From: an uncultured Acidimicrobiaceae bacterium
GTDB lineage: Bacteria > Actinomycetota > Acidimicrobiia > Spongiisociales > SHLN01
Direction: 5' to 3'
Length of the DNA stretch: 64,000 nucleotides
Assembly: GCA_947259275.1 (NCBI GenBank)
Contig: CAMYMH010000005.1
Coordinates: 7,449-71,448 of the forward strand
How positions within the stretch are numbered: the first letter of the stretch is position 1; every line of letters starts with the position of its first letter. Shown here in pieces: positions 1,225-47,348 of the stretch. The notes under the pieces are model-generated. The model was not told the origin of the DNA. It was given only the letters and a program-made list of their open reading frames with translations, and did no database searches. Made by a program: the position numbers and the translations under genes.

Positions 1225-2421
1225 TCATCGGTCCACATCTCCCAGCACGAAGTCCAGACTCCCCAACAACGCGATGATGTCGGGGACGATGAGGCCTTTG
1301 AGCGCCCACGGCAATATCGACAGGTTCGAGAACGAGGCGCTGCGGATCTTGAGCCGGTACGGGATGCGCCCGCCGTCGGACACGAGGTAATAGCCCATCT
1401 CGCCTTTCGGGTTCTCGGCCCGCACATAGGTTTCACCTTTTGGCACCTTGATCACGCGGGGCACCTTGGCCTGCAAGGGACCGCCGGGAAGATCGTCGAT
1501 GGCTTGATTAACGATGCGGGCCGCCTGGCGGACCTCTTCGACCCTCACCCGGTAGCGATCGAAGCAGTCGCCATTGTCGCCGGTGACGACGTCAAAGTCG
1601 TACTTGTGATACGGCAGGTAATCCTCGTGCTTGCGAAGGTCGAAAGCGACACCGGAAGCCCGCAGATTGGGCCCCGATACGCCGTAGGCGAGGGCCTGGT
1701 CGGCGGGTAATACCGCTACTCCCATGGTGCGAGCTTGAAAGATCTCGTTCCCGGTTACCAGGGTGTCGATGTCGTCACACACCTCGAGCACGTTGTCCAT
1801 GGCGGCCCGGGTTTCTGCCAGGAAGTTCTTGGGCAGGTCCTGGACCACTTTCTTCTGGGTGCTCCCTCCACCGGCTGCGGGCTTGACGCCGCCGATGCGG
1901 TTGAAGTTGGGATGGAAGCGCCCACCGGTTGCGCCCTCGATGAGCTCGAGCACATGCTCCCGCTCTCGCAGCGCATGCATCAGCGGAGTGGCCGCCCCCA
2001 GCTCCAGGGGGTAGGACGACATGAATACGAGGTGACTCGAGATGCGGGCCAGCTCGGTGAGGATGAGCCGAATCGACTGGGCACGCTCGGGGACCTCGAT
2101 CTCCATGAGTCGCTCGACGGCAACCATGAGGGGGATCTCGTTGGCGAAGCCCGAGACCCAATCGATCCGGTTCACGAGAGCCGTGATCTGCGGATAGGTG
2201 CGCACCTCCGACAGCTTCTCGTAACCGCGGTGCATGTACCCGATGACCGGCTCGACGTTGACGATCCGCTCGCCGTCGAGCTCGGCCACCAACCGGAGCA
2301 CTCCGTGGGTCGAGGGGTGCTGGGGCCCGATGTTGAGCGTCATACCCGGTGTCTGCAGCTCAACCGACACAGCCACTTCCGAGACATGAGCTGCCGCCCT
2401 GGGGTCGAGTGCCTGACTCAT
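1225..2421 (-). CDS. nuoD: NADH-quinone oxidoreductase subunit D (paralog 1)
   Basis: 398 aa with the NuoD/49-kDa signature LNIGPQHPSTHGVLRL. Its ATG overlaps the nuoC stop. Confidence 0.92.
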   Translation of the reverse strand: MSQALDPRAAAHVSEVAVSVELQTPGMTLNIGPQHPSTHGVLRLVAELDGERIVNVEPVIGYMHRGYEKLSEVRTYPQITALVNRIDWVSGFANEIPLMVAVERLMEIEVPERAQSIRLILTELARISSHLVFMSSYPLELGAATPLMHALREREHVLELIEGATGGRFHPNFNRIGGVKPAAGGGSTQKKVVQDLPKNFLAETRAAMDNVLEVCDDIDTLVTGNEIFQARTMGVAVLPADQALAYGVSGPNLRASGVAFDLRKHEDYLPYHKYDFDVVTGDNGDCFDRYRVRVEEVRQAARIVNQAIDDLPGGPLQAKVPRVIKVPKGETYVRAENPKGEMGYYLVSDGGRIPYRLKIRSASFSNLSILPWALKGLIVPDIIALLGSLDFVLGDVDR

Positions 2422-3281
2422 TCGGTCGCCTCGTCTTCCGGAGCGCCGGCCTCTGATTCTTCACTGGGGACTGGCGACTGGGGAGTGGGGACTTCGGCAG
2501 CGCCTTCGGCGCTGCTTGGGAGTTGCGCCGCAACTCCATCTGTGCGGTCGGCAGTCGGCGGTGGGCTGTCGGCTTGCTCTCCGCCTCCGGCATCTGCTTC
2601 TGGATTCTCATCTCCCTTGGTGGTGTCACCCTGGGGCATGGCCTGTTCCTGCGCATCGCCTGGCGGCGATGCTGAGGCTGCCGCCGCGCTTTCCGCGTTT
2701 TCTGTTGAGGGCATGTCTTCAACGTCCACCATGCCGGGCCATGGCTTGATTTCCCGGCTCAGCAGCGGGAACGTCTTGCGAAGCGGAAAACCCTCGAACT
2801 CGTCGGTCAGATAGAGCTTGCCGGAGTTGGGATGGCCCTCGAACTCGATACCGAACATCTCGGCGGCTTCCCGCTCGTGCCAATTGGCCCCTCCGTAGAC
2901 ACCGACCAGCGTCGGGAGCCGGGCGTCATCTTTCGGAATGTCGGTTGCCAGGGTGACGGCGTCGTTGTCACGGCCGCTCGACAGCCGTACGAGCACTTCG
3001 TACCGTTCCTCGACCGGGTCCTCGAGCGGCTCGCCGACCGCAACCTCGTTGCTCCAGTCGATGGCCGACAGAAATGAGAAGAACTCGAGGCCTGCCTCGT
3101 CGCGCACCGCTTCAACCGCCTCGACCCACCGGGAGCGGTCCACCCGCACCTTGGCGTTTCCGAAGTCGGCAGTCCAGGAGTCGGACCCGGCGATGCCCGC
3201 CACCCGCTCGGCCAGTGCCGCAATGCCGGCGTCGGCGACGGGCTCCGAAGCTGCGGTCTCGTCAGGCGTGCTGGTGGTCAC
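2418..3281 (-). CDS. nuoC: NADH-quinone oxidoreductase subunit C (paralog 1) with a ~95-aa acidic Pro/Ala/Glu-rich C-terminal tail
   Basis: Conserved NuoC/30-kDa core ([10 protein letters not shown]...[21 protein letters not shown]). The track ORF runs to 3389, but that stretch is Arg-rich and overlaps nuoB. The likely start is the GTG at 3279-3281, just downstream of the nuoB stop. Confidence 0.8.
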
Positions 3282-3753
3282 GCTGGTTCCACTTCTCGCG
3301 AACGTCTTCGTTGGTGATCTTCTCCTGCAACAGCACAATGCCCTCCATGAGGGCCTCCGGGCGGGGCGGACAGCCGGGGACGTAGACATCCACCGGGATG
3401 ATCTGGTCGACGCCCTTGGTCACCGAATACGAGTCCCAATAGGGGCCCCCACAGTTGGAGCAGGAGCCCATCGAGATGACGTACTTGGGGCCCGGCATCT
3501 GGTCGTAGAGGCGCCGGATTGCCGGTGACATCTTGTCGGTGACCGTTCCGGCGACCACCATGAGGTCCGCCTGCCGCGGCGAGGCGGGCAGTGGAATGAT
3601 CCCGAATCGCATGAAGTCGTAGCGGGGCCCCGAAGCGGCCATCATCTCGATGGCGCAGCAGGCGAGCCCGAACTGGAAGAACCAGAGCGAGTACTTGCGG
3701 GACCAGTTGAGCAACCATGAGAGCGGCTTGGGAGCTCCGAACTTCTCGATCAC
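3262..3753 (-). CDS. nuoB: NADH-quinone oxidoreductase subunit B (paralog 1)
   Basis: NuoB/PSST motifs CCAIEMM and [11 protein letters not shown]. The GTG start at 3751-3753 overlaps the nuoA stop (GTGA). Confidence 0.88.
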
Positions 3754-6886: not shown

Positions 6887-8146
6887 CTACTGCTGCCCCC
6901 GTTCGTCGGCCTCTACCGAATCCTCCACAGGCGGTGGTTCCAAGCCGAGCAACTGGAGTCGGGGACCCATACCCCAGATGACGACCAATAGGTAGACGAA
7001 GAAACCCGCCAGCGGGATGATGCGCACGATCCGCCATCCGATGGCAGCCACGACGAACGACCCGATGGCCGCGTATCGATTCCTGGTGACCCGCCGGCCG
7101 AGCGCCGCCAACGCGGGAACGGCACCGGCAAACAGGCCGAAAACCCAGAAGCCGAACGCCAGCAATGCAATCGGGGCGAGGATGACGGTAAATAGAGACA
7201 CGACGGCCGCCACCGGAACCAGCACAAACAGCCCGAGCCCGACCAGAAACGACGTGGCCGACCGGGACCACGCCCGATCGGTTGCCCGGCGCGTCACCTG
7301 CGGGAACAGGTGGAACAAAAGGATTCCGGTGAAGAGCAGCCCGATGAATCGAAGCGCCTGAAACAGCAGCCGGAGTGCCCGCACCGAGAGGTCGGTGGGG
7401 ATGGGCTGGACCTCAGCAACCAGTCCGAGGTCGGCCGTTGGCGAGATATCGGTGCGAGCCGTCCAGCCCCGCACATTTTGGCCGATCAACCCCTGACGCC
7501 AGCTGACGGCCGACCCCACCACCGCCGAATCGGCAATCGTGAGCCGATGGATACCGACATCGATGTCTTCGGCCACGGTCCCGTCGACATACAGGCCCCA
7601 CAGCAATTCACCCCGCACCTCACCCCCGACCATTCCGGATTGGCGGGCCGATAAACCGGCCAGCAGCACATCGCGTCCGACCGTGCCGTCCACTTCCAGG
7701 CTGCGGGCGAAGGAAAGCACGTCATCGCCTACCGATCCGCCAATGTCGACCTCCCAGGCGGCGACCCGCACGCTGCCGCCGACCTCTCCCTGAATGTCGA
7801 CGCTCCAGGCGAGACCGTTGACGTCCCCTTCCACCACCCCGTTGATGATCAGATTGCGGGTAGTGACCGTGAGGTCGCCTTCGATCCGGCCCTCAACGAT
7901 CACCCGGGAGCCGGCGGCAAACAGGTCCTCCTCGATCACCCGGCCCGACTGCACTACCACCGTCCCGGACACGGAAATGGCTCCCACCGGCGCCGGGACC
8001 ACCAGGGCGGCAAGGAACGCAACGCTCAGGAGTGGAGCGGCGATGAAGGTGCGCTTCCGGTTCCCTCCCCCCGACGAGGGACGCTCACTCATCGAACACC
8101 CCCTCCGATCCTGTGGGCCGGCTCCACTGCGGTTTGGGTGCGACAC
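6887..8146 (-). CDS. membrane protein with N-terminal bactofilin-like (polymer-forming, beta-helical) repeats and a C-terminal polytopic TM domain
   Basis: 419 aa. Residues ~60-220 are repeated GxVxGD/VxGxV units. Residues ~270-400 form 4-5 hydrophobic helices. The likely start is the internal M (MSERPSS...) near 8092. Confidence 0.5.
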   Translation of the reverse strand: MSHPNRSGAGPQDRRGCSMSERPSSGGGNRKRTFIAAPLLSVAFLAALVVPAPVGAISVSGTVVVQSGRVIEEDLFAAGSRVIVEGRIEGDLTVTTRNLIINGVVEGDVNGLAWSVDIQGEVGGSVRVAAWEVDIGGSVGDDVLSFARSLEVDGTVGRDVLLAGLSARQSGMVGGEVRGELLWGLYVDGTVAEDIDVGIHRLTIADSAVVGSAVSWRQGLIGQNVRGWTARTDISPTADLGLVAEVQPIPTDLSVRALRLLFQALRFIGLLFTGILLFHLFPQVTRRATDRAWSRSATSFLVGLGLFVLVPVAAVVSLFTVILAPIALLAFGFWVFGLFAGAVPALAALGRRVTRNRYAAIGSFVVAAIGWRIVRIIPLAGFFVYLLVVIWGMGPRLQLLGLEPPPVEDSVEADERGQQ

Positions 8147-8760
8147 GCTGTGACCTCTGCGGCGGTTCGAGGTCGGTGGCTCTTCCTCCCCGCCCTGAGG
8201 GCGGGGAGGCTCCGCCTTGGCGGAGTCGGGGTGGGGGAGGCCTCGAAACCACCACTCACCAGGTCTTCAGGGATACGTGTCTCCCCCCATCCGTCCTCAG
8301 AGCTCGGCCGGGCTTCGCCCGGCTCAGGAGTTGCTTCGCAACTCCATAGGAACCCGAAGGGTTCCCGTCCCACCTTCCCCTCGAGGTGTCGCATTTCGCG
8401 ATAGGTGCGACACGACGGGAGGCCATCACCGGTTGGAGGTCGGTCGCTGTTGCTCCCCGCCCTGAGGGCGGGGTGGCTCCGCCGATAGGCGGAGACGGGG
8501 TGGGGGAAACCAGGAACCCTGCAGATCACTGGATTTGCCGGCATGAGTGTCTCCCCCCATCCGTCCTCGTCGCTGCGCTCCTCGGCCACCTTCCCCTCAG
8601 GGGAAGGAGCCAGAACACGAGGGGGAATCCTCGAAGGTGTCGCGCACAAACCGCGATAGATCACCTCGAGGGGAAGGAAGCAGCACGTGAGCGGAGCCCT
8701 CAAGAGTGTCGGACACCAACCGCGACACCTCTCCCTCCGGGGGAAGGGCGCGGGGCCGGG
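8128..8760. repeat. tandem array of 2 full and 1 degenerate ~270-bp complex repeat units built from perfect GC-rich hairpins
   Basis: Direct repeat of ggtgcgacacg...ctccccgccctgagggcgggg(a/t)ggctccgcc...ggcggag...ggggtggggga...ccccccatccgtcctc...ccttcccctc(g)aggggaagg, starting at ~8138 and ~8409. Same family as the copies at 13985-14120 and 24920-25145, in the opposite orientation. Confidence 0.75.
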
Positions 8761-8767
8761 GAGCCGC

Positions 8768-10219
8768 TTAGAACGGGAGGGCGCTGGTAACGACATCGAG
8801 GAGCGGCCCGGGCACGATTCCAAACGCAAGCGTGACCACCGCAACGCTGGTCAGCGCCAGCCTCACAGGATCGCCAACCCGGATGTCGGTTGGCGCAGGC
8901 GACTTTTCACCGTTCGGGCTCATATACATCAGCACGATCACCCGAAGATAGAAGAACAGGCCGGCTACTGAGGCCACGGCTCCCAGGACGGCCAGCCACA
9001 GGTACCCGGCATCGACCGCCTCCCGGAACACATACAGCTTGGAGAGGAACCCGGCGGTTAGCGGGATACCCGCCATCGAGAACATGAGCAGGGCCAGCGA
9101 GCCGGCCAGCACCGGCGCTCGCTGCGCCAGCCCGGCGTAGTCGGTGAGAGGGGACTTGGCCCCGCTCGGCCCGGACACCACCGAGACCACTGCGAACGCC
9201 CCGAGCACCTGGAACGCATAGGTCACCACGTAGAACCACACGTAGGGGACACCATCAATGCCGGCAACCAGGCCGGTGAGGATGAAACCCGCATGTGCAA
9301 TGGATGAGTAGGCCAGCATTCGCTTGATGTCGGATTGAGCGATTGCCAGCATGGTGCCGACTAGAACCGAGAGAGCCGCGATGGCACCAACTGCCGGTGC
9401 CCAATCGCTGATGTAGGGCCCATAGCTGGTGACGGTGATTCGAGCCAGCGCGGCAAAGCCCGCCACCTTGGCCCCGGCGGTCATAAAACCGCTCACACCG
9501 CTGGCGGCGCCCTGATAGACGTCCGGCGCCCACATGTGGAAGGGTGCGGCACTCACCTTGAAGGCCAGGCCGACGATGAGCAGCCCGATGCCGGCCAGTA
9601 GCGCGGCCGAATCGAGCAGCACGGTCTCGCCCAGGAACTCGGCGGTGTCGTACAACGACAAGGACCCGGTGGCCGCATAGCTGAGCGCAACGCCGTACAG
9701 GAACACCGCCGAGGCAAACGAGCCGAGCAGGAAGTACTTGATCGACGCCTCGTTCGACTCGGCCCGGTGGCGGTTGAACCCGGCCAGCACATACAGGCTG
9801 ATAGAAGCCACCTCGAGGGCGAGGAACAGCATGATGAAGTGAGCCGCCGCCGCCATCAGGATCATGCCGGCGAGCGCCAGCAGGACGAGGGCGATGAACT
9901 CCGCCGCCCGCCGCCCTTGCTCGACTACCAGGGGCCAGGCCACCAGCAAAGCCACCGCTCCCAGCACGGTCAGTACCACCGCCCCAAACGCGGCAAACGG
10001 ATCGAGTGCCAGCATGCCGCGGAAGCGAATGATGGGATCGTCGGAGGCCTCAACCCATTGAGCCACCGCCAGGATGAAACCCCCGAGCAAGCTGACTCCG
10101 GCGATAGCACCGAGCCAGGCGGTTGGCGGCTTCCAGGTGACCTCCACCAATAGGATGACCACCACCCCGAGCGTCAGGGCGGCAACCGGGCCGACGGCAA
10201 GGTATGAGATCTCCGTCAT
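8768..10219 (-). CDS. nuoN: NADH-quinone oxidoreductase subunit N
   Basis: 483 aa antiporter-like membrane subunit. It is the last gene of the 14-gene operon. Confidence 0.9.
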   Translation of the reverse strand: MTEISYLAVGPVAALTLGVVVILLVEVTWKPPTAWLGAIAGVSLLGGFILAVAQWVEASDDPIIRFRGMLALDPFAAFGAVVLTVLGAVALLVAWPLVVEQGRRAAEFIALVLLALAGMILMAAAAHFIMLFLALEVASISLYVLAGFNRHRAESNEASIKYFLLGSFASAVFLYGVALSYAATGSLSLYDTAEFLGETVLLDSAALLAGIGLLIVGLAFKVSAAPFHMWAPDVYQGAASGVSGFMTAGAKVAGFAALARITVTSYGPYISDWAPAVGAIAALSVLVGTMLAIAQSDIKRMLAYSSIAHAGFILTGLVAGIDGVPYVWFYVVTYAFQVLGAFAVVSVVSGPSGAKSPLTDYAGLAQRAPVLAGSLALLMFSMAGIPLTAGFLSKLYVFREAVDAGYLWLAVLGAVASVAGLFFYLRVIVLMYMSPNGEKSPAPTDIRVGDPVRLALTSVAVVTLAFGIVPGPLLDVVTSALPF

Positions 10220-13665: not shown

Positions 13666-13971
13666 CTACCCCTTCAGTACTGCCAGGTCATCGACCGAAG
13701 CGCTCGCCCGGCGCCGGAAAACGGAGATCATGATGGCGAGCCCGACCACCACCTCAGCGGCCGCCACCACCATGACGAAGAAGACCGCTACCTGGCCGTT
13801 GAGGTCCCCGACGTGGCGTCCGATGGCCACGAAAGTCAGGTTGACGGCGTTGAGCATCAGCTCGATCGACATAAACATGACGAGCGCGTTTCGCCGCAGA
13901 AGCATGCCGCCTGCCCCGATGACGAACAACACCGCTCCCAGCGCCAGATACCAGCCCGCGGTTACTTCCAC
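13666..13971 (-). CDS. nuoK: NADH-quinone oxidoreductase subunit K
   Basis: 101 aa with three TM helices and the NuoK/ND4L motif ([13 protein letters not shown]). Confidence 0.9.
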
Positions 13972-13984
13972 GTCGGTCCTTTAT

Positions 13985-14120
13985 CTTCCTTCCCCTCGAG
14001 GGGAAGGTGGACTCGGAGCGGAGCTCCGAGGACGGATGGGGGGAGGGCCTGAAGGAACAATGCCTCCCCCACCCCGTCTCCGCCTTCGGCGGAGCCACCC
14101 CGCCCTCCAGGGCGGGGAGC
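13985..14120. repeat. multi-hairpin repetitive element (copy C) in the nuoJ-nuoK intergenic spacer
   Basis: ttcccctcgaggggaagg tggactcggagcggagctccgag gacggatgggggga ... cccccaccccgtctccgccttcggcggagccaccccgccctccagggcgggga. It consists of four or more perfect stem-loops with 3-nt loops. Confidence 0.75.
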
Positions 14121-14143
14121 GGAGGCAGAGACGGAAACCCGAG

Positions 14144-14665
14144 TCACTCTTCCGCCCCCCCTCGCCGGCGAGGGCTGAACTGAGCGAGGGCGACGGCGCC
14201 AACCGATGCGATGATCAACAGCAGCGTCGTGACCTCGAACGGAAGCAACCAGTCGGTGAATATCAAGTCGGCGATCGCCTCAACCGACCCGTTCGGCTCC
14301 GAGGCCGACGCGGGCGCCGTGATCCAGGCATTGCCCCCGATCAGGCCGATGAGAACCAAAAAGGCAACCCCGAGACCGATGGCGAGCTGGCGCTGCATCG
14401 GCAGTCGCTCTTCGAGGTTTTCGGCCCGATCGACGCCGATCAGCATGATCACGAAGAGGAACAGCGTCATCACCGCCCCGGCGTAAACCACTACCTGCAC
14501 GGCGGCGATGAAGTGACCGGAGTTGACCACGTAGAACACCGCGATCGAAAGCATGGTGGCCATGAGCCCGAGGGCGCCGTAGACCGGGTTGGGGTGCAGC
14601 ACCATGGAGAGCGCGCCGGCAACCGCGATCAACCCGAAGACGATGAACAGCACCAGCTCCACCAT
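14144..14665 (-). CDS. nuoJ: NADH-quinone oxidoreductase subunit J
   Basis: 173 aa. NuoJ/ND6-like membrane protein. Confidence 0.88.
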   Translation of the reverse strand: MVELVLFIVFGLIAVAGALSMVLHPNPVYGALGLMATMLSIAVFYVVNSGHFIAAVQVVVYAGAVMTLFLFVIMLIGVDRAENLEERLPMQRQLAIGLGVAFLVLIGLIGGNAWITAPASASEPNGSVEAIADLIFTDWLLPFEVTTLLLIIASVGAVALAQFSPRRRGGAEE

Positions 14666-15306
14666 CAGTCGCCCTCCTCCTCATCGACGGCTCCCGGCGG
14701 CGCCGGTGCCTGGCCCTGCTCGGGTGGACGGAGGCCGACCCCGGCCGACGGCGTCCAGCCCGGCACCCCTTCGTAGGCGGCTCGACCGGAGGGGGCGGTA
14801 GCGCGCATCCATCCGTCGGCGAGCCTGAGCTCCTGTAAGTCAATGAGGGGACCGTCCGGCTGGGGGTGGTTGGGGGACCCATCCTCATTCACCAGCAGCT
14901 CGTCGCGGGTGTAGATGGCCTCGCCCCTCGTGGTGACCGACATCTCGAAGAGCTGGGTCATGGTGATGGCCTCGGTCGGGCAGGCCTCGACGCACAAACC
15001 GCAGAATATGCAGCGCAGCATGTTGATCTCGTAGATGAACCCGTAGCGCTCCCCGGGGCTGACCGGCGCCTCGGGCGGGTTGTCGGCACCTCGTACATAT
15101 ATGCAGCGAGCCGGACACACCCCGGCACACAGCTCGCATCCAATGCATTTCTCCATCCCGTCGGCGTGGCGATTGAGCACATGGCGGCCGTGGAAGCGCT
15201 GCGGTTTGACCCGGGTTTCTTGCGGATAGGAGGTGGTGACCCGGGGCCGGAACATCTGGCGAAAGGTCACCGCCAGGCCCTTGGCGAAGGTGGTTACGAG
15301 GCCCAT
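14665..15306 (-). CDS. nuoI: NADH-quinone oxidoreductase subunit I (2x[4Fe-4S] ferredoxin)
   Basis: CIGCELCAGVCP and CIFCGLCVEACP motifs. Confidence 0.93.
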   Translation of the reverse strand: MGLVTTFAKGLAVTFRQMFRPRVTTSYPQETRVKPQRFHGRHVLNRHADGMEKCIGCELCAGVCPARCIYVRGADNPPEAPVSPGERYGFIYEINMLRCIFCGLCVEACPTEAITMTQLFEMSVTTRGEAIYTRDELLVNEDGSPNHPQPDGPLIDLQELRLADGWMRATAPSGRAAYEGVPGWTPSAGVGLRPPEQGQAPAPPGAVDEEEGD

Positions 15307-20125: not shown

Positions 20126-20739
20126 GAGCCTTCACCGGTCGAGCCAAGGCCTTCCAGAGCCGGAAGGGGACCAACCGAGCCGGTGGAGTCGGCCGGGCCC
20201 CAGTCGAAGCTGCGCCGGCCTCCGAACAGGGCCTGCATCTCGTCGCCGTTGACCACCGGAGGCGAGGCGTCGCGTAACCATTGCACGAGCGATCGGGCCT
20301 GGTCGGGGTTGACTCCTTCAATCAGCTCGTAGTTGACCTGGACGGCGGGGGCACCGCCGCAGGCGCCGATGCATTCAACATGCTCGACTGACACCTGCCC
20401 CTCAGGGTCGGTCTCGCCGGCGGGGACACCCGCCTCGTCTTCGATGGCGGCGAGCACGCGCTTGGCTCCCAGCAACCCGCATGAGATCGAACTGCAAACC
20501 GAAACGAGGTATTTGCCCACCGCCTGCCGCTTGTACATCGTGTAGAAGGTGGCGGCCGCGGATACCTGTACCGAGGTCAGGCCGACCAGTCCGGCAACTT
20601 CCCGGATCGCCTCATCGGTGAGATACCCGTGTTCGGACATGGCGAGGTAGAGCAGCGGCATGACTGCGGAGCGCTTGTCGGGGTAGGACGACAGGATCTT
20701 CTCGACGCGGGGTGTTGTAGTCCAGTCAGCCAATGACAC
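20122..20739 (-). CDS. nuoE: NADH-quinone oxidoreductase subunit E (24 kDa, 2Fe-2S)
   Basis: 205 aa. Thioredoxin-like 2Fe-2S motifs (CSSISCGLLG ... CIGACGGAP). Confidence 0.92.
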   Translation of the reverse strand: MSLADWTTTPRVEKILSSYPDKRSAVMPLLYLAMSEHGYLTDEAIREVAGLVGLTSVQVSAAATFYTMYKRQAVGKYLVSVCSSISCGLLGAKRVLAAIEDEAGVPAGETDPEGQVSVEHVECIGACGGAPAVQVNYELIEGVNPDQARSLVQWLRDASPPVVNGDEMQALFGGRRSFDWGPADSTGSVGPLPALEGLGSTGEGS

Positions 20740-20832
20740 GTCCCCAGTCCCCCGTCCTCCGTCCCCGGTCCAGAACCGCGAGACCCGGGATCGGGTCGGG
20801 GGTCGGGTGCCGGGGGTTGGGGGTCGGACGGC

Positions 20833-23254: not shown

Positions 23255-23658
23255 CAGGCGGCCTCCTCGGTGTCGGGCACATACCGCTCCCGGCGGGGTG
23301 GGTTCCAGTCGAGTGCGCCCCGTTTCCATACGTAGATGAGCGTTTCGATAGCAAGCGCCACGAAAACGGCGATGGCGCCGACCCCGACCCAGCCCAGCTC
23401 GGTGAAGCGGGTAGCCCAGGCGAACAGGAAGATGATCTCGATGTCGAAGATGACGAACAGCATCGCCACCAAGTAGAACTTGACCGGAAACCGCTCGACC
23501 GGCTCTACCTCCGGAACGATGCCCGACTCATACGGGGCCAGCTTCTCGGGCGTCGGCTTGCTGGGTGACACCAACCGCGACACGAAGAGCGAGACCACGG
23601 CGAATCCGATGCCGAGGACGACCATGATCGCAATCGGCAAGTAGTCGAACAACTCCAC
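23254..23658 (-). CDS. nuoA: NADH-quinone oxidoreductase subunit A
   Basis: NuoA core (YESGIVP...[22 protein letters not shown]). The proposed GTG start at 23656-23658 has GAAAGG 8 nt upstream. The longer track ORF (to 23802) would run into the IS element. Confidence 0.8.
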
Positions 23659-23769: not shown

Positions 23770-23803
23770 CCTAGGTGTCCTTCCCACAGAGGTGGTTGAC
23801 AAG
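23770..23803. repeat. IS481 terminal inverted repeat (nuo-proximal end)
   Basis: cctaggtgtccttcccacagaggtggttgacaag. Confidence 0.8.
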
Positions 23804-24721
23804 GACGGTCATGGGTGACTGGCCTGCGAGTTCTGAGTGGGGTCGGGTTTGATTGTATGTCTCGAGGAAGTCGGGGAGGGCGTCTCGGCGTTCTGGGTTC
23901 GAGTTGTAGGGCCGTTTGTAGGCCCATCCTTTGAGGAGGGTTTGGTGGAACCGTTCGACCTTCCCGTTGGTTTGGGGTCGATATGGTCGGGTGCGTTTGT
24001 GGGTGGCCCCGATCGTGTCGAGCATGGCCTTGAAGCTATGACTGGTGTAGGCCCAGGCGTTGTCGGTCATCACCCGGTCGATACGGAACCCGAGGGTGGC
24101 GAACCATTGGGAGGCTCGGAGCATGAACTCCGCGCAGGCGGTGGCGTCTTGGTGGTCGAGGATCTCGGTGTAGGCGACCCTCGAGTGGTCATCAACCATG
24201 GAATGGGCGAACTCATAACCGACCCGATGAGGGGTTCCTCGGTTCTCCATGCCATGGACCCGCCAGCCTCCTCCGTCGGGGATCCGGCCCAGTTTCTTGA
24301 TATCCACGTGCACCAGCTCACCGGGGCAGTCCTTCACGTATCGGATCGGAATCCCGCTGGTTCGGTCCAGGGTGGAAAGTCGAGACATTCCCCGACGCAC
24401 CAACACCGCGTAGATCGTTGAGCGGGGTATCCCGAGCCGGCCTGCCATCAAATGCGGACCCTCTTTCTCAGTGACTCGATCGGTGACAATCCGCTGCTCA
24501 GCCTCGGCGTTGAGACGGGTCGGACATGAATGGGGCCGCGACGACCGATCTTCCAGTCCGGCCTCACCCTCAGATCGGAACCGGCGCACCCACCGATACG
24601 CAGTTTGGCGAGACACTCCGACCGCGGCGGCAGCCGATGCCACCGGCCATCCCAACGTCACTATCCGATCAACCAGCAGTCGCCGCCCGAACGGTGTCAA
24701 CCTCGAATTACCGTATCCCAC
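23771..24721 (-). CDS. IS481-family transposase (N-terminal HTH plus DDE integrase core)
   Basis: 316 aa with HTH (VGVSRQTAYRWVRRF), DDE core (HVDIKK...D...TDNAWAY...E) and C-terminal RPYRPQTNGKVERFHQTL. Confidence 0.9.
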   Translation of the reverse strand: MGYGNSRLTPFGRRLLVDRIVTLGWPVASAAAAVGVSRQTAYRWVRRFRSEGEAGLEDRSSRPHSCPTRLNAEAEQRIVTDRVTEKEGPHLMAGRLGIPRSTIYAVLVRRGMSRLSTLDRTSGIPIRYVKDCPGELVHVDIKKLGRIPDGGGWRVHGMENRGTPHRVGYEFAHSMVDDHSRVAYTEILDHQDATACAEFMLRASQWFATLGFRIDRVMTDNAWAYTSHSFKAMLDTIGATHKRTRPYRPQTNGKVERFHQTLLKGWAYKRPYNSNPERRDALPDFLETYNQTRPHSELAGQSPMTVLVNHLCGKDT

Positions 24722-24785
24722 GAGAGCCTCCCTCGGCTTGGAGCTTTATCACCCCAAACCGAACCGGGAGGCTCTCACCCTGTCA

Positions 24786-24819
24786 AGTGTCAACAACGTC
24801 CCTGGGAAGGACACCTAGG
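24786..24819. repeat. IS481 terminal inverted repeat (distal end)
   Basis: agtgtcaacaacgtccctgggaaggacacctagg, the reverse-complement partner of the other end. Confidence 0.8.
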
Positions 24820-24919
24820 AGAGCGAAGACACTCGACCTCGCCGGATTGTCCTCATCCAGGCCCAACCGCCACCGGCCCTCCGAGATGGGGCCACCTTCT
24901 CCTCAGGCCATCTGTCGCG

Positions 24920-25145
24920 GCTTGTGTGCGACGGTCGAGCCATGACACGCTCTTCGTTCCCCTCGAGGGGAAGGTGGACTCGGAGCGGAGCTCCGAGGAC
25001 GGATGGAGGGAGACGGCCATACCTGCAAGCCCAGTGGACTACAGGGTTCCAGCCCTCCCCCACCCCGACTCCGGCTCCGCCGGAGCCACCCCGCCCTCAG
25101 GGCGGGGAAGATAAGCGATCAATGTGTCGCATCTATCGCGACAGG
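24920..25145. repeat. multi-hairpin repetitive element (copy D), same family and orientation as 13985-14120
   Basis: gtgtgcgac...ttcccctcgaggggaaggtggactcggagcggagctccgaggacggatggaggga ... cccccaccccgactccggctccgccggagccaccccgccctcagggcgggga, followed by gtgtcgcatctatcgcgacag. Confidence 0.75.
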
Positions 25146-45361: not shown

Positions 45362-47137
45362 TCATACGATGAAAAAGGCGGGACCACCCCACGAGAGACC
45401 GAGCCAGGCGCTGGCCGACCAGGACATGCCCGACCAGGACATGCCCGACCAGGAAGCACCCGACCAGGAAGCACCCGACCAGGACATGCCCGACCAGGAA
45501 GCACCCGACCAGGACATGCCCGACCAGGACATGCCCGACCAGGAAGCACCCGACCAGGGAGCGCCGTTCCAGTCGCCGTCCGACCAGCTGTCCCCGTCGG
45601 CGGAGAGGCTCGACCAGCTCGCTCCGTCCCAGGGGTTGCCCATGATGTCCTGCTCACCTTCGAGCACGACACCGTCGTGCTCCAGGTTGAAGGAGCCGCG
45701 GGAGGCCTCGAGCGATCCGGTTCCCTGTGCAGCCTGTGAGCTCTGGTGCCCGTTGGGAGTTGATGCCCCGTAGGCCTCGGAGAGATCTAGCAGCCCGGCG
45801 CCCTGGCACTTCGAGCTTTCTCCAGAAATCGGTTGGGCAGTGCCCATGAGGAGCGCCTTCACCTGGTCGGGAGTGATCTCGGGCCGCTGATCGATGATCA
45901 GGGCGGCGGCTCCGGATACGACGGCGGCAGCCTGCGATGTTCCGCTCCCAACCAGGTAGGAGCCATCGACGATCGCCTCCGGATGGTCCCGGGCCGCACT
46001 CGAGTCTGGAGCCAGCAGGCTCACGATCGACTTGCCTGGAGCCACCAGATCAACATGGCGCTGGTAAGTGCCGCAACTCGAGAACGAGGGAATGGAGTCG
46101 TCGCCGGTGCGCTCGGACCCATTGGTCGCGGCAGCACCGACTGCGATCACGAAGGGATCCGATGCGGGGTTGCGCAGCGGCGAGCTGTTGCCATCGTTTC
46201 CGGCGGCCACTGCTACGACGATTCCGTGCTCCCAGGCCTGCTCGACGGCGAACGCCAGCGGGTCATAGCGGTAGCTCTGGGTGCTGTCGGTCCCGAAGGA
46301 CAGGTTGATCACCCGGATGTTCATGCCGTTGTCGTCGCGGTGCTGCACCACCCAGTCGATGGCTGCGATTACCTGTGACACGTCGGTGGCTCCGTTGCGG
46401 GTGGCCACCTTGACGTTGACGATGCGGGCGTCCGGGGCCACGCCTAGGAAGTGCCGCTTCGCTTCCTTCGTGGTGATCTTGTTGGGAGCTGAGTTCGACC
46501 GTCCGGCGATGATACCGGCCAGGTGGGTGCCGTGACCGAACGAGTCGACATATTGGAGATCCGGATTCTGCGACTCGAAGGACAGGTCCGGTCCGTTGAT
46601 GACCTTACCGTTGACGGTCAGCCCGTCGACGCCACTGACGCCCGAGTCGATGAGGGCAACGTCGACGCCTTCGCCGGTGTAGCCGCCGTTCCAGAAGCGA
46701 TCGGCGTTCACGACTCGGTCGGCAACAGTGGCCATGGATTCCTGGCCAGAACTGGCGTAGTCCCAGCCCGTCAGCTCGACGGTCCCGTCAGGAACAACCG
46801 AGGCGATCGCCGGATGGCCTGCCAACGAATCGAGCGCCGAGCTCGGAAGCTCGGCAGCGAACCCGTCGATGATGCCGAGCCCACCGGTCACCGTGCCGCC
46901 GAGGTCGTCAATGAGGGCGGCGACATCGGTAGCCGTACCCGGGACCTGCTGGACTATGACGTCAACGGAGTCGTCGGCCAACGCCGGGGTCGGCACGAGA
47001 ACGGTGAGGGCCAAAGCGAGCGCGAAGAAAGCCGAGGAAAGCCTCGGTGCCGTCCAGCTGACACCGGCTGCCTTGGTAGCGGTGCGGAGCCGAGGCCCAT
47101 CCCAGCTGACACCGGTCTTTCCTGAGTGCGTGTTCAT
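45362..47137 (-). CDS. secreted S8 family serine peptidase (subtilase) with a C-terminal (A/M)SWSG pentapeptide repeat tail
   Basis: Signal peptide from MNTHSGKT. Catalytic triad blocks D (ALIDSGV), H (HGTHLAG) and S (GTSQAAAVVSG), followed by ~11 SWSG(M/A) repeats. Confidence 0.85.
   Translation of the reverse strand: MNTHSGKTGVSWDGPRLRTATKAAGVSWTAPRLSSAFFALALALTVLVPTPALADDSVDVIVQQVPGTATDVAALIDDLGGTVTGGLGIIDGFAAELPSSALDSLAGHPAIASVVPDGTVELTGWDYASSGQESMATVADRVVNADRFWNGGYTGEGVDVALIDSGVSGVDGLTVNGKVINGPDLSFESQNPDLQYVDSFGHGTHLAGIIAGRSNSAPNKITTKEAKRHFLGVAPDARIVNVKVATRNGATDVSQVIAAIDWVVQHRDDNGMNIRVINLSFGTDSTQSYRYDPLAFAVEQAWEHGIVVAVAAGNDGNSSPLRNPASDPFVIAVGAAATNGSERTGDDSIPSFSSCGTYQRHVDLVAPGKSIVSLLAPDSSAARDHPEAIVDGSYLVGSGTSQAAAVVSGAAALIIDQRPEITPDQVKALLMGTAQPISGESSKCQGAGLLDLSEAYGASTPNGHQSSQAAQGTGSLEASRGSFNLEHDGVVLEGEQDIMGNPWDGASWSSLSADGDSWSDGDWNGAPWSGASWSGMSWSGMSWSGASWSGMSWSGASWSGASWSGMSWSGMSWSASAWLGLSWGGPAFFIV
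45406..45555. repeat. perfect 15-bp tandem repeat, ~10 copies (ccgaccaggacatgc / ccgaccaggaagcac), in-frame within the subtilase 3' end
   Basis: Read directly from the sequence. It encodes the SWSG(M/A) units. Confidence 0.9.
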
Positions 47138-47348
47138 CTCCTGCCATCGGGGCACGGCCGTCTCCTTTGTTCCGCTTAGGAGAAACATCGACCCACTCAG
47201 AAAAATCTCAGGAAGCAAAGGATCCGATGCCGAATTGACTAGTCCTTGGATTCACTCAGGTAGCGGCTCGCACCCGCCGATGTTCTGATTCTGAGATCCC
47301 CACGCCTATCCGCCCACGAACCCGCGGGGGCACGAATCGGAGGGTGAC

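Follow-up and report, generated by a model that had tools for sequence, protein, structure and literature searches.

What is the dense array of hairpins that lies between nuoN and the next gene in a 64,000-nucleotide stretch of DNA (hereafter the window) from an uncultured member of the Acidimicrobiia? The source genome, a metagenome-assembled genome (MAG) with a GC content of 65%, carries here a minus-strand nuo operon of 14 genes, and all nearest named homologs to its NuoJ are labelled 'Acidimicrobiia bacterium'. The array occupies the 675-bp spacer (8093–8767) between the stop codon of nuoN (8768–10219, minus strand) and a minus-strand gene for a bactofilin-like protein, the counterpart of which in relatives is a DUF8173 gene; the start of this gene is most likely the ATG at 8092, an in-frame GTG at 8146 being a possible alternative. 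An initial annotation, made from the sequence alone, had described ~270-bp tandem units here and suggested that they represent a family either like the REP (repetitive extragenic palindrome) and MITE (miniature inverted-repeat transposable element) repeats or of structured RNA. Further copies, together with empty orthologous sites in relatives, bore this suggestion out, and we conclude with good confidence that the array is a local cluster of interspersed repeats that are non-coding, modular and rich in hairpins, and that make up a new mosaic family resembling REPs, BIMEs (bacterial interspersed mosaic elements) and MITEs.

The ~270-bp periodicity proved to be real: direct repeats lie 267–270 bp apart (8137–8298 versus 8404–8568), and BLAST comparison of the units gave 77.6% identity over 165 nt, with single blocks at 79–81%. 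The two ~268-bp direct units (~78% identical) are followed by two ~70-nt partial units, all of them composed of GC-rich hairpins, and what had been taken for a third, degenerate unit is actually these two sub-repeats (8599–8665 and 8669–8734). Tandem Repeats Finder reported no repeats in 7500–9500, an outcome explained by the low similarity of the units (~78%) and by the ~65-nt insertion in which they differ. The array folded better than shuffled sequence on both strands (z = −4.3 and −5.8), and its pattern is not due to chance. A 13-nt block, CCACCTTCCCCTC, is found at both 8370 and 8586. Among the perfect hairpins quoted in the initial annotation, ccccgccctgagggcgggg is present at 8188–8206 and 8455–8473 and ggctccgccttggcggagtc at 8208–8227, as are three extra hairpins in unit 1 (8307–8323, 8327–8345, and 8349–8365); ttcccctcgaggggaa, however, has no perfect occurrence in 8128–8760 (the nearest, 8660–8675, has two mismatches), and is perfect instead at 13990 and 24957, i.e., in the two other loci of the family in the window.

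These two loci each contain a core of ~140–165 nt, one in the nuoJ–nuoK spacer and one upstream of the nuo operon. Conserved 20–22-mers occur 4–6 times in the window against 0.00–0.08 expected, and further occurrences of blocks such as GGCGGAGWCGGGGTGGGGGA and GTGTCTCCCCCCATCCGTCCTC are found near 14050 and 25030 (minus strand), with ~0 expected. Core copy C (13983–14121, minus strand; 146.7 bits with the covariance model described below) fills the spacer between nuoJ (14144–14665, minus strand, stop at 14144) and nuoK (13666–13971, minus strand, start at 13971) in the orientation of the operon. Composite copy D (24912–25140, minus strand; 164.9 bits) consists of a left module (25126–25140), a core (24950–25112) and an X module (24912–24932); it follows a glycosyltransferase gene and precedes an IS481-family insertion sequence (IS) and nuoA. 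A pattern scan, i.e., an exact two-block search of representative genomes and metagenome contigs, identified seven loci with eight copies (one clipped by the locus end) in a second Acidimicrobiia MAG, CAXMQV01, as well as five metagenome contigs, two of them identical, leaving four distinct; the further copies for which the initial annotation had proposed a search are thus present both in the window and beyond it. A covariance model, R1, for which nine copies and a manually specified structure of five helices were used, matched 15 full cores at 91–180 bits and one cut copy, and gave no comparable match on 12 nuo loci of relatives. Four of the cores are in the 64-kb window and eight in the ~8-kb pieces read of CAXMQV01. 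All 15 full cores are intergenic, the window and loci L003, L009 and L010 also hold tandem or partial copies, and neither a blastn search of plasmids nor two pattern scans of viral contigs gave a match to the family. The family is found in a clade of uncultured Acidimicrobiia, apparently marine judging from sample and MAG names.

CAXMQV01, the source of loci L001–L007, is titled 'uncultured Gammaproteobacteria'. This label looks wrong from its sequence: its GC content is 64–65%, it carries the repeat family, and its threonine aldolase is 84–90% identical to proteins named as Acidimicrobiia, the figure for proteins of Acidimicrobiia MAGs being 88%.

Two related REP-like palindromes, inverted relative to each other, bound the core. 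The left palindrome reads TTCTT-CCCCGCCC-TGA-GGGCGGGG-TGG; the right one, CCA-CCTTCCCC-TCGA-GGGGAAGG-AAGAA, repeats this architecture in inverted orientation, and the core therefore has inverted ends (left TTCTTCCCCGCCC..GGGGTGG, right CCACCTTCCCC..GGAAGAA) that are versions of one module. There is no GTAG tetranucleotide, and the terminal palindromes are flanked by TTCTT and CCA; one subfamily of the left palindrome has CCCCTCC..GGAGGGG and an additional GAACCCTCCGGGTTC hairpin. Internally, the core contains the covarying hairpin hp2 (CTCCGCC-loop-GGCGGAG), the invariant long G-rich/C-rich stem P3 (CGGGGTGGGGGAGG pairing with CCTCCCCCCATCCG, with a tip of variable length and with a 2x2 internal loop and a G.U pair that are both invariant), and P4, a covarying 7–8-bp stem between an invariant CGTC head and an invariant TCCA tail. 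CGTC stands immediately 5' of P4 in 15 of the 15 cores (CCATCCGTCCTC is invariant), and hp1, hp2, P4 and the right palindrome each span 19–28 nt. The initial annotation had described conserved termini and a variable core; the most conserved blocks are in fact internal, being the P3 stem and the junctions around P4, while the tip of P3 and the stem of P4 are indeed variable. Different hp1 variants are combined with different P3 tips across the copies. Two optional accessory modules are found only beside cores, the left one a hairpin GTGTCGCA-TTTCGCGATAGG-TGCGACAC carrying CGCGATAG, and the right one the 'X' hairpin GTCGCACACAAACCGCGACAG, which also lies 25–45 nt downstream of the core in copy D and in the copies at L007 and L010. 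The CGCGAYAGRTGCGAC motif likewise occurs only beside cores (window 8397 and 25126, L001 6920, and L002 3095). An X-like match at 23568–23585 falls within the nuoA coding sequence and was dismissed as chance.

A short module, CCGTGGATTGAGG (complement CCTCAATCCACGG), recurs beside cores and also beside other hairpin repeats (L003 5558–5570; L004 3436–3448, 3565–3577, and 3810–3822; L009 76–88, 310–322, 577–589, and 625–637; L026 1089–1101), and in the L004 and L009 cores it substitutes for part of the left or right palindrome.

With these modules the array can be read in order, the ~270-bp unit of the initial annotation being a left module plus a linker plus a core. At its edge is an inverted left-end fragment of the X module (8129–8146, minus strand; GCGGTTTGGGTGCGACAC, the reverse complement of GTGTCGCACCCAAACCGC), which matches the X pattern with three mismatches and forms an inverted repeat with 8637–8654 (89% complementary over 18 nt). 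The remnant of the unit 1 left module (GGTGCGACAC) with a ~36-nt linker (8137–8182, plus strand) belongs to direct repeat D1 (8137–8216 versus 8404–8483, 81% identical). Core copy A (8183–8386, plus strand; model match 8183–8341, 90.7 bits, E = 8.5e-26) has hp1 at 8185–8209, hp2 at 8208–8227 and the P3 arms at 8227–8240 and 8281–8293; its P4 is disrupted and its right palindrome reduced to the 5' arm (8370–8382). The three hairpins regarded as inserted in unit 1 are present, and are of two kinds. Two of them, GCCGGGC-TTC-GCCCGGC followed by GGAGTTGC-TTC-GCAACTCC (8304–8347, plus strand), are a small repeat of another family that is nested in the core: this pair, which neither unit 2 nor 13 of the 15 cores contain, recurs twice, inverted, in the nuoG–nuoH spacer of L016, and its GGAGTTGC...GCAACTCC hairpin is also found at 2519–2537 of the window. 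The third (GGAACC...GGTTCC; GGAACCCGAAGGGTTCC, then CGTC; 8349–8369, plus strand) is an alternative form of P4, matched at the equivalent position of the L009 core by the variant GGAACGCGCAGCGTTCC-CGTCCACC. A left-module hairpin, GTGTCGCA-TTTCGCGATAGG-TGCGACAC (8386–8413, plus strand), forms the junction between the units, and is followed by the complete core copy B (8450–8612, plus strand; 140.7 bits, E = 6.5e-41) with hp1 at 8453–8473, hp2 at 8475–8496, P3 at 8496–8509 and 8551–8563, a decayed P4 at 8564–8584 and the right palindrome at 8586–8607. Then come X module 1 (GTGTCGCGCACAAACCGCGATAGA) with a partial right palindrome (CACCTCGAGGGGAAGGAAG) (8637–8680, plus strand; exact X pattern at 8639–8659), and a degenerate X module 2 with a partial palindrome (TCCCTCCGGGGGAAGG) (8706–8747, plus strand), which is the second ~70-nt sub-repeat, shares direct repeats D3, D5 and D6 at 69–70 nt spacing, and matches the X pattern at 8708–8728 with three mismatches. 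The array (8129–8747) would have grown by insertion followed by local duplication.

That the cores are insertions is shown by the orthologous spacers of relatives, the nuo operons of which were obtained via NuoJ homologs of 82–90% identity. The nuoJ–nuoK spacer, 172 nt here with core C, is 0 nt in L023, 7 nt in L019, 8 nt in L022 and 22 nt in L016, and the spacer from nuoN to the DUF8173 gene, 675 nt here, measures 69, 48 and 13 nt in relatives. A second locus agrees: downstream of a threonine aldolase gene, L001 has a core in a spacer of 263 nt, the spacer of L031 is 108 nt long and holds only a hairpin with runs of heptamers and no core, and that of L032 is 54 nt long and empty. The nuoJ–nuoK junctions of L013, and of L021 with L025 and L026, hold two other, unrelated hairpin repeats, which shows that intra-operon spacers such as nuoJ–nuoK are invaded repeatedly by differing hairpin repeats.

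The closest NuoJ relatives, L025–L027, were rejected as clean empty sites, having a different insertion after nuoJ. The three encode an identical NuoJ protein (P0002), have no nuoK within ~290 nt of nuoJ, and show repeats after nuoJ followed by an apparently convergent gene; either a split of the nuo operon or a larger insertion at this point may account for this. The other hairpin family found after nuoJ in L025 and L026 and in the nuoJ–nuoK junction of L021 (TCTCCCCCCGGAGGGGGGAG, TCCGGCGTAGCCGGGA, CCGCCCCTGCGGGGC, and CCTCCCCCTCCGGGGGAGG) scores 25–45 bits with the core model on both strands (L021 1889–2000, L004 3583–3728, L009 108–227, L025 1326–1442, and L026 889–1005).

Relative to the upstream gene, copies are in sense at 8–9 loci and antisense at three, the array included, and a sense bias of 9/12 is not significantly different from random. 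The array cores (8183–8612) and the copies at L002 and L004 are antisense to both flanking genes. At six loci a terminal palindrome lies 6–25 nt past a stop codon, a proximity that could reflect target preference, the survival of insertions, or a function at 3' ends. No shared theme runs through the neighboring genes (xanthine dehydrogenase, MsrA, aldolase, nucleoside hydrolase, flavin reductase, and nuo genes), and the copies are variously tandem, truncated and nested, occur in both orientations and have modules shuffled between them. It is because of the empty sites, both orientations, the tandem, truncated and nested copies and the shuffled modules, together with the inverted palindromic ends, the constant heads and tails with covarying stems and the unrelated neighbors, that we place the family in the class of REPs, BIMEs, MITEs and REPINs (REP doublets forming hairpins).

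The likeness to REPs and BIMEs of Enterobacteria and to the REPINs of Pseudomonas, which are mobilized by RAYTs (REP-associated tyrosine transposases), covers several features: all are short GC-rich extragenic palindromes, often just past stop codons, with inverted pairs joined to other conserved motifs in mosaic clusters, constant heads and tails, covarying stems, both orientations, tandem and partial copies, and a presence that varies among relatives. The palindromes of 19–28 nt are repeated and extragenic as in REPs, the terminal palindromes are combined with hp2, P3, P4, left and X modules in varying ways as, descriptively, in BIMEs, and the terminal inverted repeats, which RNAalifold pairs, are as in MITEs. 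Unlike a REPIN, however, the core has its inverted pair ~100 nt apart, separated by the structured hp2, P3 and P4 rather than a short linker; unlike REPs and REPINs, it has no GTAG head; and no parent IS with the same terminal repeats accompanies it in the window as for a MITE, the only IS there, IS481, being unrelated. P4 taken alone is reminiscent of the CGTC-tagged REPs, which have a CGTC head, an 8–9-bp stem in which A-T at the first two positions is almost invariable, a 4–5-nt loop and a CCA tail, and for which a dedicated transposase is not known (Di Nocera et al. 2013, PMC3733652); Actinobacteria, the phylum of our host class Acidimicrobiia, are not mentioned in that survey. P4 agrees in its CGTC head, its short stem (7–8 bp) and loop, and the CCA within its unpaired tail (TCCA), but its first stem pairs are C-G and T-A, its loop is 3 nt, and it is one module of a larger composite in another phylum rather than free-standing. 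As P4 departs from the published stem and loop details, we have not filed the element as a member of the CGTC-tagged REPs.

The BOX elements of Streptococcus pneumoniae and the Correia/NEMIS elements of Neisseria offer a further comparison: these are MITE-like, modular, non-coding intergenic repeats of 100–300 bp, co-transcribed with their neighbors, with stable stem-loops, inverted ends and a variable number of internal modules, and Correia elements duplicate a TA target. Our core family is likewise a modular, non-coding intergenic repeat with stem-loops and inverted ends, but has no sequence similarity to them and no visible target-site duplication.

The structure of the core is supported by its alignment. 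When fitted to the model, 94% of cells form standard pairs, and 16 of the 42 pairs show changes on both sides, a count reached by none of 500 shuffles, while sliding the partners lowers pairing to 52–62%. Covariation is seen in hp1, hp2, P4 and, to a lesser degree, the right palindrome; P3 never covaries. On the raw MAFFT alignment RNAalifold favored a long-range closing stem that joins both terminal palindromes over the local hairpins; we kept the latter because they covary, and the closing stem is possibly an alternative fold that reflects the inverted-repeat ends.

If the family is of the REP/BIME/MITE kind, it would have spread as a non-autonomous element, its folded single strand probably recognized by a protein encoded elsewhere in the genome, as RAYT-type HUH (histidine–hydrophobic residue–histidine) transposases recognize REPs and REPINs. 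At the locus itself, where the array is antisense to nuoN, the palindromes would still fold in the 3' part of the nuoN transcript; most likely they would be only stable RNA stem-loops ~20 nt past the nuoN stop, acting as an exonuclease barrier or a spacer and not as a dedicated regulator.

Several observations weigh against this reading. A target-site duplication was sought at the borders of the 15 copies and no direct repeat was evident (the relatives with empty sites are too diverged for exact insertion junctions), and no parent IS sharing the ends of the core was found, IS481 being the only IS in the window. A tblastn search of ~315 kb gave no Y1 transposase or RAYT gene, its IS200 TnpA query being a weak probe. 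The counts of copies come from a 64-kb window and from ~8-kb MAG pieces. The covariation was counted on a model-fitted alignment, and as much of it separates genome-specific subfamilies, the independent events are few. Finally, some features would equally be expected of a functional RNA: P3 and the junctions are very strongly conserved between two species, orientation leans 9:3 towards sense, and G.U pairs exceed A.C pairs (33 versus 8, or 18 versus 8 without the invariant pair), a sign that the modelled strand folds, whether as RNA or as single-stranded DNA.

These features bring in the strongest rival, that the core is a functional structured RNA, either a cis-acting element of 3' untranslated regions (3'-UTRs) and intercistronic spacers or a multi-copy small RNA, with its copies kept by selection for RNA function and with the five helices and the invariant junctions serving as a protein-binding site or building a tertiary structure. 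Besides the G.U excess on the modelled strand and the compensatory changes in hp1, hp2 and P4, with 94% of cells paired, it would account for the invariant unpaired and internal-loop nucleotides and the P3 G.U pair common to two species, for the 8–9 of 12 loci in sense to the upstream gene, four of them starting 6–23 nt past the stop codon, and for the copy in sense within the nuo operon. Yet the copies at 8183–8612, L002 and L004 are antisense to both neighbors, with no promoter-like site found in 7900–9000; presence and absence at orthologous sites of close relatives mean that no locus needs the element; and the flanking genes have no common function, truncated, decayed, nested and tandem copies are common, and the sense bias is not significant. 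Rfam, which the initial annotation had suggested consulting, returned no family: the best match to the array region scored 20 bits against a 43-bit gathering threshold (E ~1, searched up to E 10), and nothing in the whole window reached a gathering threshold. Since some copies are antisense or decayed and each site can do without the element, we regard the structured RNA as rather unlikely. Similarly improbable, in our estimation, is that the core, more than selfish DNA in decay, is a sequence-constrained five-helix module bound as a folded single strand by a dedicated protein, possibly a CGTC-specific nuclease or transposase, or possibly an RNA-binding factor, the element then being a signal for stability and processing that can be moved between 3'-UTRs or intercistronic spacers. 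If the former version held, the orphan CGTC-tagged REP superfamily would gain its missing enzyme, in an actinobacterial lineage. Under either version, three hairpin families inserted repeatedly and independently at nuoJ–nuoK in different lineages would mean targeting beside stop codons; alternatively, nuoJ–nuoK and sites like it simply tolerate insertions.

That the hairpins are factor-independent terminators or attenuators between the nuo operon and the downstream gene is suggested by their perfect GC-rich stems ~20 nt past the nuoN stop and 6–23 nt past stops elsewhere, and actinobacterial terminators reportedly often lack U-tracts. We think this very unlikely, however: sites with a hairpin plus a T-run are absent from both strands of 7900–9000, a core also lies between nuoJ and nuoK, where the downstream genes nuoK to nuoN need expression, and 675 bp with more than 12 hairpins is far beyond what termination requires, relatives managing with spacers of only 13–69 nt. 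A protein-coding role is hardly credible at all, although two open reading frames (ORFs) do exist, one of 251 residues on the minus strand (8089–8844) and one of 134 residues on the plus strand, and the source assembly annotates a 246-residue protein. Neither ORF has a Pfam match, and the sole match to the 251-residue ORF among 5.8 billion proteins is its own 246-residue annotation in the source contig; this ORF also runs into the 3' end of nuoN and did not pass a filter on GC at third codon positions, and the copies differ by indels and compensatory stem changes, not by codon-preserving ones. The initial annotation was right to call this ORF spurious, and the public 246-residue protein is probably a false gene call. 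It was also right to set aside a clustered regularly interspaced short palindromic repeat (CRISPR) array, or another regularly spaced one, for which we see practically no chance: direct repeats do recur at 69–70 nt and ~268 nt, but with only two copies per period, the 'spacers' are conserved family modules present at other loci, and no regular array was detected.

The mobile mosaic repeat that we favor is not a gene and reveals no new kind of system: selfish intergenic repeats of this kind are well known, and ours is a new family among them. It does, however, give uncultured marine Acidimicrobiia a repeat family with a covariance model, where we found no earlier description of mobile repeats of the group: a full-text literature search identified no paper joining Acidimicrobiia with REP elements, and a 2025 survey gives palindromic-element counts for Acidimicrobium ferrooxidans, with families not described. 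The array enlarges a spacer within a respiratory gene cluster and yields a spurious protein in the public record; differences in presence and absence could serve as strain markers in metagenomes, and the family offers a route toward whatever mobilizes CGTC-type palindromes.

The complete IS481-family element (23770–24819) between composite copy D and nuoA parts the nuo operon from its upstream region. Its transposase ORF (23771–24721, minus strand) scores 319 bits to NF033577, and it has 32-nt terminal inverted repeats (TGTCAACAACGTCCC...), the outer tips of the arms being CCTAGG, which we take to be the CTAG-type target of IS481. As a relative of the core it was rejected, its inverted repeats being unrelated and its CTAG-type duplication marking a separate insertion.

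The small hairpin nested in core A also appears in coding sequence. A second NuoC is encoded at 2418–3389 (minus strand; PF00329 at residues 81–211 of 323), and in its C-terminal tail of ~110 residues the DNA (2463–2573) contains heptamer runs and a GGAGTTGC-NNN-GCAACTCC hairpin. As the orthologous NuoC tail of L016 (15100–15160) has the same hairpin (at 15113), these hairpin repeats appear to sit in frame within the coding tail. In this the nested small family resembles the Rickettsia palindromic elements, which can sit in coding regions; unlike them, the main core family is found only between genes.

Another recurrent type is a long, imperfect hairpin with arms made of 7-nt repeats in a row, e.g., (CGTCCCC)n against (GGGGACG)-like runs, and its unit often contains CGTCC, like the head of P4. 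One is in the nuoD–nuoE spacer of the window (20739–20827) and of three relatives (L013 2727–2822, L019 1746–1985, and L023 1526–1711), with a different sequence each time, and further ones are in L001 (~1225–1300), L028 (3527–3625), L029 (3527–3616) and L031 (3530–3637). After threonine aldolase, the type and number of repeats differ between two contigs encoding an identical protein, so that the heptamers there look like a variable number tandem repeat. Elsewhere in the window, tandemly repeated DNA (45399–45562; CCGACCAGGACATGC, ~9 copies; periods of 15, 30 and 45 nt) lies inside a subtilase-family ORF (45362–47218, minus strand). In DNA coordinates the repeats precede the Peptidase_S8 domain, so that the C-terminal tail of this protein is probably repetitive.

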